Under the pieces are notes generated by a model. It searched no databases and had not been told where the DNA came from. It worked only from the letters and a program-made list of their open reading frames with translations. A stretch of DNA of 64,000 bases from positions 87,544,001 to 87,608,000 of the forward strand of contig OZ024741.1 in the NCBI GenBank assembly GCA_964016885.1, read 5' to 3'. Both the position numbers and the translations under genes were made by a program. The DNA comes from Eledone cirrhosa (lineage: Eukaryota). Below are positions 31,281 through 58,199 of this stretch, piece after piece. Within the stretch, counting starts at the first letter, position 1. Every line of letters starts with the position of its first letter.

Positions 31281-31398
31281 AACCTGGACCATCGCTTCGA
31301 TGGTTTCTGTAAATCCGAAATCTTCAAATTCCGCTTGCGGTGTATGCAAGTTGTTGGTTTTGGAAGTTTGAACAGAAGATTTACTTTCTCAACAGGCT
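31281..31398 (-). ncRNA. Type-I hammerhead, U3:A8 core variant
   Basis: AGCCTG-TTGAGAA-a-GTAAATCT...GGATTTAC-a-GAAA-CCATCG-aag-CGATGG-TC-CAGGTT. Confidence 0.8.
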
Positions 31399-32867
31399 TC
31401 CGTTCAGACGCCAGGCCGGTTATGAGTAAACACATATTTCTCCAAAGGGAGCTAATACACGGCTTTTGGCGGTCAAATTTAAATTTTGAGCAATGGAATT
31501 ATTTCCATACACAAACTGAATTAAGCACTCAACGAGATCGTTATTAAACAAACATAAATAATTAACCAATCAATAGAATTGTCTAATTAAATTAATCAAT
31601 TAATCATTAGGTCTAGGAGATAATAATACAAATGGAAGTACAGCATATATATATATATATATATATATATATATATATAATTCAATTGATATTAAATAAA
31701 TGGAAACTATATTTATAAAACCATATTTATTCTATTATATATATTTCAAGGGTACCACAAATTTTGGTACGTTATCATCAGATAAAATACAAAATGTTTT
31801 ATAAATATTTGACATGACCAAGGATGATATACCTTAACGGTTCAAGTTATCCCTGGAAAGTGAAGGGAAGAGAGGAGAAAAAGTCAGATATTTAAAATTA
31901 TTAATATGATTATGCAAATGATGTGTATATTAAAGGGCTGAAAAAAACGTTATTTTAGACGCTATGGAAAATTTAGATATTTGTGATAAGGAAAGAAGAG
32001 AAAGAGAAAAGAATAACGTTAATTTGGGGGAAAAAGATTTTTGTTACCTATGCTATGAGTTATAAAATTATATGAAGAATTATGGTTGTAAGTTTTGGAA
32101 ATCAAACAAATATAGATGTTTACAACTGATTCAAAGCACACGACACGTTTCAAATATCTGTATTTGTTGGATTTCCAACAAATTAAATATCTCTTATACA
32201 TATATATATACTAGACCACCCGTGACCCGTTGGGTCATGTTCACTTTAAAATATTTTTTTTTAAATCGTGTTCACTTAAAAATAATTTTTAAATAATAAA
32301 AATATACACAGACATGTATATAATGTGAAATGAAACTGGAAGACCTATATATATAAGTGAGTGTATGTATATATATATATGTGTGTGTGTGTAAACATAT
32401 ACATATATATGTATGTGTGTGTATATATATACATATGTGGATGTCTGTGATCTACACGCACTGGTCATAATCACACACATATATATATATATTCACACAC
32501 ACTCACATATATATATATATATATATATATATATATATATATATATACACACACAACAGCTCTCTTCCATTTTCATTCTCTGTCTCCTCTCCCTCTTTCT
32601 GTCTCTCTTTCAATCTACTCTCTCACAACCACTATCTCTTTCTCTCTATCTTTTTCTCTCTTTGTTTACTTTGTTTATGAAGGCACCAGGAAAAACCCCA
32701 TATGTCGGGAACCCGCGGTCTGATTTACGCGAAATTTGTTTTGTTCCATTTGTATTCCCATTTCAGGGTCAACTTCCTTTCAAAGTATTTTCCCATTATG
32801 TGCCCTTTATCTGTATTACATTACAGATAAGCAAGCAAGCAATCAATCACAGACTTTTAGTATTATA

Positions 32868-33355
32868 TAAAAATGTATACACCATTCTAATATATATATT
32901 GCCTGTACAAGTAATCAAAGTGTGTATACATTTTTCGGGGACACCATATATATATATACCGGGGTCCCTAAAAATGTATACACCATTCTAATATATATAT
33001 TGCCTGTACAGGTAATCAAAGTGTGTATACATTTTTCAGGGGACACCATATATATATATATACCGGGGTCCCTAAAAATGTATACACCATTCTAATATAT
33101 ATATTGCCTGTACAGGTAATCAAAGTGTGTATACATTTTTCGGGGACCCCATATATATATACCGGGGTCCCTAAAAATGTATACACCATTCTAATATATA
33201 TATTGCCTGTACAGGTATTCAAAGTGTGTATACATTTTTCCGGGACACCATATATATATATACCGGTGTCCCTAAAAATGTATACACCATTCTAATATAT
33301 ATATATATTGCCTGTACAGGTAATCAAAGTGTGTATACATTTTTCCGCGACACCA
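32868..33355. repeat. Tandem array of ~5 mariner-like mini-MITEs (~100-bp period) separated by (TA)n
   Basis: Unit CCGGGGTCCCTAAAAATGTATACAC...GTGTATACATTTTTCGGGGACACC. Confidence 0.85.
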
Positions 33356-33547
33356 TATATATATATATATATATATATATATATATATTTATTAAAATAA
33401 CAGATTAAAGTTTAAGCAAAGAATCGCTGCTTTCACCCTTAACGGGATCTTCTGAAACTAACAAAGTCAATCTGTAAACGCAGAACTGGATATTTCAAAA
33501 AACGTTGCAACCGGAGGAAGACAGGAAGACGATACTTTGGTTCGTGG

Positions 33548-33805
33548 TAACGTTCGCTGGCAAAGAACGGGAAAAAACGAATAACACATAGGAGCGGTGA
33601 AAAACAATTACGCGCAAAGACAAAACCACGTTTATGGTATAAAAGAGGTCGTAGACTAATGTTCTCTTAGGTGGTGCATAGAGACGTTCTCTGGCAATGA
33701 ACGAAAAAACGAAGATAATAAGTCATATGTGGAGCGTGGAGAACAATAGCACGCAAAGACAAAACCACGTAGATGGTATAGCAGAAATCGTAGACTAAAT
33801 TTCTA
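33548..33805. repeat. Diverged ~130-bp tandem duplication
   Basis: Two copies of ACGTTC.CTGGCAA.GAACG...GCAAAGACAAAACCACGT...TCGTAGACTAA. Confidence 0.7.
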
Positions 33806-34542
33806 ACTAGGAGACCAAATGAATCTCCGCTACATGTTATCCATGTGCTACCTGCAGTATTTTTCTCTATATTTTATTACATATATTTACCACTGCGATT
33901 CTGTGTTTTTTTCTCTCTCTCTTACTGTTCCCCCATTCTCTCTGTTTCTCCCCCTCTGTCATGTCAGTTAACTCTTCCTCACACTTTCACTCACTCACTG
34001 TTTCTCTCTCTTCTCTTCATTTCATCCTGTACACCACGAAGGCTATTTTTCTCTCTCACATAGCCTTCGCTCGTGTCGGGTCTGTTCTAAAAGCGCTCAT
34101 ATATTCACCTAGCTTATGCTAAAAAGAATAATTTTTGAAGCTTGTTTCTTTCCCCTGGTTAGCCATACTCTTTGTTGTTCTCCTGTCTCACTCGCTTTAC
34201 GCGTTTTAATTGTCCTAATAACTTATTTTGGTTATTATTGCACCGACGTGAGGTATATGATTTTTAATGCAATGAAATATCTATGATCGTCGGCAAATCA
34301 CTGATGAGGGACTCCTTTTATTACATATATATATATATATATATATATATATATATATATATTTATATAGTTAATTATGCTAATTGGGAGAGGAAATAGT
34401 ATATATTTTATCTTGTGATTCTATAGACATGTTTTATGATATATATATATATATATATATATATATATATATATATATATATATATATATATATATATAT
34501 GTATATATACATATATATGTATATATATATATGTATATATAT

Positions 34543-56455: not shown

Positions 56456-56774
56456 ATATATATGTGTGTGTGTGTGTGTGTGTGTGTGTGTGTGTGTGTG
56501 TGTGTGTGTGTGTGTGTGTGTGTGTGTGTGTGTGTGTGTGTGTGTGTGTGTGTGTGTGTGTGTGTGTGTGTGTGTGTGTGTGTGTGTGTGTGTGTGTGTG
56601 CGTGTGTGTGTGTGTGCGTGCGTGCGTGCGTGCGTGCGTGCATGTATGTATGTTATTCAGTTGAAGAGAATTGGTTGATCATAAATCTCGACTTTTTCTT
56701 AAACTTGAAGCACTCCACGGTTTGTATTTCTTAAGATTTTCTCCGTAAGGTATCGCCTAGAGTTTTGGTATAAA

Positions 56775-57102
56775 TAAGGGAGACGGTTTTATTCGAAAAT
56801 CTTCATTTTATTATCTAGTTCATTATACGTATTTCAAAGGTGCAAGATAGTTATATAATAACCGCCTTACACATTCTCTTCAGACGAATCGAGATGTATT
56901 TTTCCTTTGATATGCCACTGATATGAGTGCTGCACGGCGAGGTTAACGACACGCTGGACCAGTGGCATATCAATGGAAAAATACATCTCGATTCGTCTGA
57001 AGAAAAGTGTAAGGTAGTTATTATATACCTTACATCTTTGAAATACGTATAACGAACTAGATAATAAAATCAAGATATACTAATAAAACCGTCTTTCCTA
57101 TA
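56775..57102. repeat. Palindrome with back-to-back hammerheads
   Basis: Arms ~56775-56920 and 56960-57102; each arm carries one HHR. Confidence 0.85.
56992..57056 (+). ncRNA. Type-I hammerhead (mirror copy ~56819-56888 on -)
   Basis: TTCGT-CTGAAGA-AAAG-TGTAAGGTA..TACCTTACA-tCTTT-GAAA-TACGTA-TA-ACGAA. Confidence 0.8.
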
Positions 57103-57727
57103 TATATTAAATATGCTAGCAGAAAAACCACCCTTCGGGTGGTTTTCTGCTAGCATGTGTAGTGTGTATATTGATATTATACGCAAGTATATATATACAT
57201 GTAGATATGATACGTCAAATAAAATCGTAATTGACAATATACACAGAAATTGAATGAAGACCGTGTTACACTGTCTTATTTAATCAGTAATGTAATCCAT
57301 GATAGATTTAAAAAAAGACGATATTATATCTAAACTGCATTAGGAGAAAATTAGTGACGAAAATATATGAATACTTATTTAAGCGATCACCACGGGAAGG
57401 GTTGACATTTGAAAATTTTAAAGAAGTGAATCTTTAAATAAATAATAAAATGTATTTAATGAACAGCCACGAAATTTAGTAGATAAATTATGTAATATTC
57501 ATTCATTATTTATTCAAAGTAATTCAACTTATTTTACTAATGGGATAAACAATTATAAACCGTACGCAGTCCCGCGCTTCTTACTTTATTATAGTTTAGA
57601 TATATATGTATGTATATATATATATATATATATATATGTGTGTGTGTGTGTGTGTGTGTGTGTGTCGCGGGTTCAATCGGGGGTAACCACAATAAATCAG
57701 GTACTCAATACATAGTAGAGTATATAA

Positions 57728-57859
57728 TGTTTAATATAGAAATGGCTTCTACAGGACAAGAACTGTTTCATTCGAATGAAATCATCAGGAAAGCTTTCCT
57801 GGTGATTTCCTTTGAATGAAACAGTTCTAGTCCTTTAGAAGCCATTTCTATATTAAACA
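57728..57859. repeat. 132-bp palindrome with divergent HHR-like cores
   Basis: Centre AAAGCTTT; CTGATGA..GAAAC on -, CTGGTGA..GAAAC on +. Confidence 0.75.
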
Positions 57860-58164
57860 ATATATGTGTGTGTGTGTGTGTGTGTGTGTGTGTGTGTGTG
57901 TGTGTGTGTGTGTGTGTGTGTGTGCGTGCGTGTGTGTGTGTGTGTGTGTGTGTGTGTGCGTGTGTGAATAGGGAGAAAACAACGATTATTAGGAAGAAAC
58001 ATTTTTTTTTTTCCTTTATTTTTTTCTCTTTTTTCTGGGTTAGAAAATGTTTAAAACAAAATATTTTACTTTGTGAGAAGTGTTAAGGTATTAGTTAATT
58101 TATTTATTAATTAACAATACCATTGATTTATTTATTTATTAATTTATTTATTTAAAAATTGTCA

Positions 58165-58199
58165 ATTACCGGTTTCAGCATTTTATGCATTATCAAATT
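58165..58199 (-). ncRNA. Minimal type-I hammerhead, U3:A8 variant
   Basis: AAT-TTGATAA-t-GCAT-aaa-ATGC-t-GAAA-CCGG-TA-ATT, downstream of a PLE endonuclease. Confidence 0.6.

Follow-up and report, generated by a model that had tools for sequence, protein, structure and literature searches.

Five sequence motifs, c1 to c5, in a 64,000-nt stretch of the Eledone cirrhosa genome (assembly GCA_964016885.1, contig OZ024741.1, positions 87,544,001 to 87,608,000; hereafter the window) combine the layout of a type-I hammerhead ribozyme with U-A, rather than C-G, at core positions 3 and 8. We consider it very probable that all five are type-I U3-A8 hammerhead sequences, predicted to self-cleave after GUC, GUA or GUU, and that the 3' regions in which they sit belong to (TA)n-targeting Hydra-clade Penelope-like elements (PLEs; c3, c4 and c5) and to two related short non-coding elements (c1 and c2). 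The motif, the three-helix fold and the repeat-family membership of each site can be read directly, as can the (TA)n tract that closes each of the five families and the PLE open reading frame (ORF) of c3. The window is 60% A+T, animal-type and rich in (TA)n, (GT)n and (CT)n microsatellites, and the source genome measures 3.0 Gb.

An earlier inspection of the window (the original prediction) had named the five sites as carrying TTGAGAA or TTGATAA heptamers, with helix I and GAAA in register. Both statements hold at every site (coordinates in Table 1). The core U4 G5 A6 N7 A9/G12 A13 A14/A15.1-U16.1/H17 is present at all five sites or in the majority of family members, while C3 and G8 of the CUGANGA consensus are replaced by U3 and A8 throughout. 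This replacement does not exclude hammerhead membership, because isosteric covariation of the two positions is described in PMC3088659 and PMC4209133. All five motifs have the type-I layout with helix I open, which is seen directly in the window copies of c1, c3 and c5 and in intact family copies of c2 and c4.

The c1 motif reads AAGCCUG, UUGAGAA, A-GUAAAUCU..GGAUUUAC-A, GAA, ACCAUCG-aag-CGAUGGU, C, CAGGUUU. Its helix II comprises 8 bp with an insert of about 75 nt, and the motif lies 11 nt from the 3' end of its element, which abuts (TA)n. The family alignment attributes the 6-bp helix III at 31280 to a 20-nt deletion particular to this copy. The homologous c2 motif reads GCCUG, UUGAGAA, A-...-A, GAA, ACCCU..AGGGU, C, CGGGU; its window copy is decayed, with helix II weakened by two substitutions. 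In c3 (ACCCC, UUGAGAA, GA(U)CGGCU-40 nt-AGCCGUC, GAA, ACGGCU-ugagcuc-AGCUGU, C, GGGGU) the G10.1-C11.1 pair is formed and helix II carries a 40-nt loop; in the copy at 44066, helix I stops at 44159, 12 nt ahead of ...GGUUCC and (TA)n. The c4 motif opens with AGUAUU, UUGAUAA, U-UUGG..CCAA-U, GAA. The minimal c5 motif (UAAU, UUGAUAA, U-GCAU-aaa-AUGC-U, GAA, ACCGGU, A, AUUG) has a palindromic, dimer-type helix III and lies about 195 nt before the element 3' end at 57968. The GUC or GUA triplet claimed for four of the sites is present, as GUC at 31280, 36006 and 38957/44066 and as GUA at 58163. The fifth site, 56296 (c4), had been described as lacking a triplet. This is true of the window copy, in which a 4-nt deletion (TTGT) in helix III has removed U16.1 and H17, but the loss is specific to that copy: a GUU site is present in other c4 copies (GAA ACA-tt-TGT T AATACT).

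TTGANAA occurs 72 times on the two strands of the window versus 30 times for CTGANGA (2.4-fold) and is thus so common that the heptamer alone means nothing. We searched with a structural descriptor composed of helix I (4 bp or more), NUGANNA, helix II (5 bp or more), GAAA, an A15.1:U16.1 pair extended by 2 bp or more, and H17, in all 16 N3/N8 combinations. Within helix II the 10.1/11.1 pair could remain open and a single bulge or mismatch was tolerated; this version replaced a stricter one that matched only c1 and one canonical motif. The window yielded 12 matches, nine of them C-G and three U-A (c1 and both copies of c3), with none for the remaining 14 combinations. Over 200 dinucleotide shuffles of the window, the mean was 1.1 matches overall, 0.02 for C-G and 0.10 for U-A. 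With the minimum for helix II lowered to 4 bp, c5 was matched as well, together with one match each for U.G, G-C and U.U (100 shuffles expect 2.4 overall); U-A then stood at four matches versus 0.23 expected from shuffles.

The descriptor was also applied to a genome sample of 100 stretches of 10 kb (1 Mb) at fixed coordinates on 17 contigs. With helix II of at least 5 bp, it matched 71 of 560 C-G heptamers, 15 of 915 U-A heptamers, 1 of 575 U.G heptamers and none of 636 C.A heptamers; with at least 4 bp, the matches numbered 89, 29, 2 and 3, respectively. The other 12 combinations gave 0-4 matches each at the stricter setting, 14 in all, and up to 7 (A.G) at the looser one. Set against the 14 non-pairing combinations, U-A has an odds ratio of 9.2 (Fisher p = 3e-8, a test that counts copies, which are not independent). 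In the comparison of compensated with uncompensated cores that the original prediction had proposed, UUGANAA is therefore enriched and U.G and C.A are at background. Among the possible states of positions 3 and 8, descriptor matches are enriched only for the two Watson-Crick pyrimidine-purine pairs.

Filtering the 1-Mb sample for a short near-palindromic helix III, which is the hallmark of PLE hammerheads, left 99 matches, comprising 81 C-G, 13 U-A, two U.G and one each of C.C, A.A and G.A. These form 27 sequence clusters, six of which are purely U-A; the c3 type and the c1/c2-like types are U-A families beyond those six. One U.G copy and the C.C copy are lone members of C-G clusters, and the other U.G copy is a singleton. 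The three C.A matches of the looser setting, in which helix III is long and non-palindromic, resemble chance matches. Palindromic helices III among the U-A families are ACCGGU, ACGGUCGU, ACAGAGCUCUGU, ACAAUUGU and ACUACGUAGU, as in published PLE hammerheads. U-A makes up about 1 in 6 to 1 in 4 of the descriptor matches in the genome, so that a core which the original prediction called a rare variant is common in E. cirrhosa.

The U-A core is also the majority state within each of the five families, being carried by 27 of 32, 31 of 35, 42 of 46, 19 of 20 and 19 of 23 of the available copies. A first look returned 887 candidates for c1, 2439 for c2, 410 for c3, 628 for c4 and 1201 for c5; (TA)n stands at the end of all five families, and the copies are 5'-truncated at varying points. 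The youngest family is c3, in which 40 of 41 scored matches are 100% identical over 157 nt, and all 40 carry U-A. A c3 29-mer has 2107 exact matches in the genome (reversed-pattern control, 0). Among 20 aligned copies of c4, N7 drifts (U in 10, C in 9) and neighbouring core positions do not.

An older sister family of c3 carries CUGAGAA, a C3.A8 core. It was first seen as three copies with other diagnostic changes in common (L012, L114 and L172), and its 29-mer has 827 exact genome matches (reversed-pattern control, 0). Twenty fetched copies (L261-L280) average 92% identity to one another and 83% to c3; every other core position is intact, and the (TA)n ends and tail are those of c3. The c3 sequence context with G8 has only 14 exact matches, ten U.G and four C-G, and the more distant c3 relatives L202 and L009 are U-A. 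For the C.A family, in this unrooted lineage, the choices are a derived loss and an intermediate state later compensated in c3.

The c3 motif occurs twice in the window, in a PLE copy and in an inverted, 5'-truncated copy, whose arms of 1979 nt are 100% complementary. The 706-codon frame of this element contains the reverse transcriptase (RT) motifs FDIESYYA and YRDDG, HSDKTGN (the DKT motif) and the CxCX5C linker CNCPDRSIC, followed at the C-terminus by GIY-YIG (VIYQ...YIGLT), CNLC (CxxC, in PCNLCSEE) and CKH (CxH, in TACKHRL). The RT and endonuclease (EN) motifs were identified by visual comparison with the account of the Hydra clade in PMC8557442, which gives short PLEs with a C-terminal EN, DKT, CxCX5C and (TA)n insertion. 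The protein has 2070 homologues of about 700 aa, all unnamed; the 706-aa frame returned no Pfam family at E <= 0.01 and no PDB sequence at E <= 1.

The c3 family ends in GGTTCC and a TA-rich repeat at 30 of 30 loci. Beyond the GGUUCC end of the left window copy lies a one-sided tail, which recurs after GGTTCC in copies L261 and L266 of the C.A family; one-sided tails of 30-40 nt are described as a PLE-specific insertion signature (PMC8557442, PMC11167929). By these motifs, as read by eye, c3 is assigned to the Hydra clade: the RT and GIY-YIG ORF, DKT, CxCX5C, CxxC/CxH, (TA)n insertion, inverted copy and tail were all found. The clade's element length of less than 3 kb was not, since c3 tandem copies elsewhere in the genome are spaced by the unit length of 3542-3543 nt; length is a weak criterion, for which the relevant passage of PMC8557442 says 'generally'. 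One tandem array of this PLE, at G000:C1:91473241-91487411, consists of five head-to-tail copies spaced 3542-3543 nt. Of seven public runs, all in the form of assembled contigs, X1, X2, X6 and X7 gave cover, of a kind that carries no information on RNA ends, strand or cleavage. In the contigs of run X2, the kind of which is not on record, summed word depth rises to millions over 44116-44163, in the last ~50 nt of the element. This peak covers helix III and the cleavage site and stands far above the rest of the 3' untranslated region (UTR), as if shared with many more repeats.

PLEs related to c3 also accompany the other motifs. Of 100 random 10-kb stretches, 16 contain divergent relatives of the c3 protein by tblastn (33-55% identity), and the window holds three further PLE ORFs or remnants, each with a hammerhead downstream. 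The c4 motif sits in the 3' UTR of a PLE with an ORF remnant at 54821-55030, the element ending at ~56457 with (TA)n/(TG)n. ORF remnants lie upstream of c4-type (L105) and c5-type (L117) motifs and of one more U-A family (L169), and PLE ORFs with a canonical motif downstream are found in the window (54517 and 61547) and at L137, L175 and L233. In a tree of the EN domain, U-A-linked and C-G-linked PLE ORFs are mixed in both 100/99-supported groups, which implies at least two state switches, a count that exchange of 3' modules could affect. The tree comprises 17 rows and 170 columns, all from copies of this genome, with only 8 tips labelled; near-identical c3 copies and high-scoring segment pairs not spanning residues 600-685 were left out, and ORFs were linked to motifs by proximity (same strand, within 2.2 kb).

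The elements that carry c1 and c2 are short, and no PLE ORF was found within 1.5 kb of either motif (c1: loci L001-L030). Forty of the 887 c1 candidates were scored, at 83-100% identity. The c2 element ends in ...CGCTAAATGTATAT and (TA)n/(TG)n, and part of that 3' end is present a second time upstream of the element, at 35675-35748; positions 35681-35748 repeat 36301-36368 at 99%, a partial tandem resembling a pseudo-long terminal repeat (pLTR). Apart from this partial copy, neither c1 nor c2 forms a long tandem array in the window. The two motifs share GCCUG UUGAGAA AGU.A.AUCCU.UGUUCGAUC, and the 8 bp of helix II are kept between them through three double-sided changes at 10.4, 10.6 and 10.7 (A:U to G:C, A:U to U:G and U:A to A:U), plus two one-sided changes. 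The original prediction had placed the motifs in unrelated elements. Instead, the elements at 31280 and 36006 are homologous, all five families are (TA)n-targeting and Penelope-type, and they form one guild of Penelope-type elements with c1 and c2 as likely non-autonomous riders.

Unconstrained folding gave the hammerhead as the minimum free energy (MFE) structure for c3 (-22.9 kcal/mol), the c1 window copy (-31.6 kcal/mol) and the c2 copy L064 (-28.1 kcal/mol). For the c1 window copy z was -3.65, and none of 200 shuffles was as stable; in c1 copy L003 the hammerhead fold lies 0.1 kcal/mol above the MFE. Unlike the intact L064, the decayed c2 copy of the window has an MFE structure other than the hammerhead.

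Nine canonical (CUGANGA) type-I motifs from about six families also occur in the window, mostly with a palindromic helix III; the motif at 54517-54612 served as a comparison case. The family of the U3.G8 copy at 34960-35042 has canonical CUGACGA in six sampled copies, so that the window copy is a lone variant. The family of 30446-30528 has CUGAAGA in 32 of 39 copies, UUGAAGA in two, UUGAAAA in one and other cores in four. A switch from C-G to U-A within this family was considered and dropped, the lone U-A copy being sporadic.

Table 1. Positions of hammerhead motifs and their host elements in the window
Feature	Position	Strand	Basis or remark
c1 U3-A8 hammerhead motif	31280-31399	-	descriptor match, stems 7/8/6
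Short non-coding (TA)n-flanked element with c1, ~385 nt	31281-31665	-	coverage profile
c2 U3-A8 hammerhead motif, homologous to c1	36006-36143	+	alignment of 30 copies
Non-coding element with c2, ~620 nt	35750-36368	+	coverage profile
c3 U3-A8 hammerhead motif, longer PLE copy	38957-39050	-	descriptor match, stems 5/8/5
c3 motif, identical, in inverted 5'-truncated PLE copy	44066-44159	+	descriptor match
PLE copy and inverted 5'-truncated copy	38942-44174		copy 38942-~42195 (minus); inverted copy 42196-44174
706-codon open frame, stop to stop	40153-42270	-	
One-sided tail, ~35-40 nt, beyond GGUUCC end of left c3 copy	38905-38944	-	
c4 U3-A8 hammerhead motif, decayed copy	56296-56403	+	alignment of 20 copies
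c5 minimal U3-A8 hammerhead motif	58163-58200	-	found only with helix II relaxed to 4 bp
Further PLE ORF or remnant	50694-53338	+	34-38% identical to 40153-42270 frame
Further PLE ORF or remnant	54821-55030	+	34-38% identical to 40153-42270 frame
Further PLE ORF or remnant	62165-62959	-	34-38% identical to 40153-42270 frame
U3.G8 hammerhead copy (UUGAUGA)	34960-35042	+	helix III palindromic, ACUAAUUAGU
Canonical C3-G8 hammerhead (CUGAGGA)	54517-54612	+	downstream of divergent PLE ORF, 37 nt before (TA)n
Canonical motif	30446-30528	-	
Canonical motif	30982-31131	+	
Canonical motif	44407-44464	-	
Canonical motif	45175-45232	+	
Canonical motif	47906-47963	+	
Canonical motif	56819-56888	-	
Canonical motif	56992-57056	+	
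Canonical motif	61547-61658	-	

Several observations weigh against the identification of these motifs as self-cleaving hammerheads. The core nucleotides are imposed by the descriptor, so their presence in the matches is not independent evidence. Only c1 clearly exceeds shuffled sequence in fold stability; c3 does not (z = -0.75), and the hammerhead folds of c4 and c5 are not the monomer MFE, which is expected for dimer-type motifs yet lends no support. Rfam returned no hammerhead at gathering score in the window, nor at E <= 10 over 30000-60000 or over 43950-45300; this silence says little, because the nine canonical motifs of the window are missed as well. The expectation that canonical-core searches would overlook the U3-A8 motifs was borne out, and Rfam overlooks them too. 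Over 30000-60000, Rfam gave 93 matches at E <= 10, all low-scoring and none at its family's gathering score; most are miRNA-like matches on (TA)n/(GT)n microsatellites (mir-297, mir-466, mir-1277 and others). Further points against are that ribozyme mutants of an Anolis PLE had no effect on insertion in vitro, as reported in PMC11167929, and that the C.A family agrees with a non-essential ribozyme role. Given the at least 827 copies of that family, the 3-8 pair is not strictly required for spread. The sporadic U-A copy and the two U.G copies in the canonical family of 30446-30528 look like ordinary decay.

These points bear on two other explanations. In one, the motifs are relics: the junction would have been inherited from canonical PLE hammerheads, would no longer cleave in the A8 lineages, and would be kept as a structure within the 3' UTR, for example to bind the element's RT near the initiation site, or be carried along by hitch-hiking in successful families. 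The spread of the C3.A8 family and the neutrality of the Anolis mutants favour this explanation, as do the toggling of position 3 between U and C in the c3 lineage with G8 nearly absent, the location of the motif 12-17 nt from the RT start region, and the statement in PMC8557442 that Naiad PLEs thrive without canonical hammerheads. A protein-binding junction, however, would not explain the enrichment of only two Watson-Crick pyrimidine-purine states among 16, and that at least 6-10 families with unrelated stems all retain a full catalytic core with U-A would be left unexplained. The free variation of N7 in c4 beside fixed neighbours also argues against relics, and we regard this explanation as unlikely.

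Chance and transition decay are already disfavoured, and we give them very little credence. UUGANAA would be frequent in 60% A+T DNA, or would derive from CUGANGA by C>T and G>A, and would be unconstrained. The excess of TTGANAA heptamers in the window fits this, as do the one UUGAAAA and two UUGAAGA copies of the canonical family and several loose U-A matches whose long, non-palindromic helix III looks like chance. The shuffle expectations for U-A matches are nevertheless far below the numbers seen at both settings, equally A+T-rich cores are not enriched (AUGANAA, 2 of 992; UUGANUA, 0 of 602), and entire families carry U-A, their 100%-identical copies among them. Decay moreover predicts more single than double changes, while U.G and C.A together gave 1 match versus 15 for U-A. 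The claim that the double change is selected rather than a product of decay consequently stands in part. The fixation of U-A in whole families, the background level of uncompensated cores in the 1-Mb sample and the switches, at least two in number, sustain it; the C3.A8 sister family with its 827 exact copies and the sporadic, decay-like U-A copy count against it.

If the motifs are U3-A8 hammerheads, as we prefer, the RNA is predicted to cleave itself after H17. In c3 the predicted cut falls between GUC and GGGGU, 17 nt upstream of the GGUUCC end common to all insertions and upstream of the tail, and cDNA synthesis would start at that GGUUCC end. A cut inside one unit would part the body from the initiation site, and the likeliest role is therefore the processing of tandem or read-through transcripts. 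Tandem (pLTR) or read-through transcripts would likely be trimmed to unit-length RNA, from one cut to the next. Either this unit-length RNA or a circle ligated from it would serve as template, and the circle could be copied beyond its junction. A circle or unit-length model has been proposed for PLE hammerheads and retrozymes (PMC4209133; bioRxiv 10.64898/2026.07.22.740005), and the tandem arrays and partial tandems of these elements would fit it. The U-A state may be retained because the 3-8 pair needed for catalysis stays intact.

The double change itself is not new. Covariation of C3-G8 to U3-A8 in natural hammerheads is reported by Perreault et al. 2011 (PMC3088659), a survey whose treatment of the variant is general and not tied to PLEs, and which cites Przybilski and Hammann 2007 for the in vitro activity of such covarying cores. 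Our full-text literature search for U3-A8 hammerheads found only Cervera and de la Pena 2014 (PMC4209133), in which a U3-A8 descriptor gave ~1,300 matches for Schistosoma PLE hammerheads. The motifs described here resemble those of the Cercyon PLEs of Schistosoma mansoni, as portrayed there, in having a type-I hammerhead in the PLE terminal repeat or 3' region with a core covaried to U3-A8, in the many heterogeneous families per genome, and in the palindromic dimer-type helix III, here of c4 and c5. They differ in belonging to the Hydra-type (TA)n-targeting PLE clade and to a different host genome, and in that c1, c2 and c3 have 40-75-nt helix II inserts and a long helix III, with the hammerhead already the monomer MFE. 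Moreover, at least two state switches have occurred here and a C3.A8 family has also spread.

A second comparison is with the Hydra-clade hammerheads of Craig et al. 2021 (PMC8557442). All 34 rows (33 families) of their File S2 have CUGANGA, and the passage on these motifs calls canonical motifs universal in the clade. The motifs of the window agree with that account in their place near the 3' end on the sense strand, in type I, and in GAA followed by an AC..GU helix III. As in the Hydra-clade layout ctgatgaT tgcc..ggca Tgaa, an unpaired pair flanks helix II, namely U.U in c4 and c5 and A.A in c1 and c2, and the c3 ORF shares DKT, CxCX5C, CxxC and CxH as well as (TA)n insertion. Unlike in the tabulated families, several Hydra-like families here have UUGANAA, the c3 unit is 3.54 kb rather than under 3 kb, and the c3 motif lies 12 nt from the end versus roughly 30-40 nt by our reading of the table. 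The c1 and c2 elements (~385 and ~620 nt) are non-coding, abundant and equipped with a type-I hammerhead, like the animal retrozymes lacking long terminal repeats that are described in PMC7229834 and by Li et al. 2026 (bioRxiv 10.64898/2026.07.22.740005), and likewise co-occur with PLEs that could mobilise them. Unlike those retrozymes, as described, they form no long tandem array in the window (c2 has its partial upstream copy) and have a U3-A8 core. Set beside this literature, the advance is modest. It consists of U3-A8 in Hydra-type elements and their riders, its frequency in this genome, the at least two switches, the long-insert forms c1-c3 that fold as hammerheads in the monomer, and a C.A family at high copy number.

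More tentatively, and with doubts that outweigh our confidence, we suggest that young, high-copy PLE families of this genome present a natural allelic series at the 3-8 pair, made up of C-G, U-A (reached by at least two independent switches), sporadic U.G, and C3.A8 in at least 827 copies. Under this suggestion, either C.A, possibly as a protonated wobble, would be a third working core state, or cleavage would be dispensable for Penelope retrotransposition in vivo.

The published U3-A8 variant is thereby extended to Hydra-clade PLEs, previously reported as universally canonical in the account of PMC8557442, and U3-A8 forms a sizeable share of all hammerhead motifs in this genome. In genomes of this kind, annotation by Rfam or by CUGANGA descriptors will return too few ribozymes. 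Published in vitro work leaves undecided whether Penelope elements need the ribozyme in their life cycle, and the closely related active families with U-A, C.A and C-G cores offer a ready comparison for that question.

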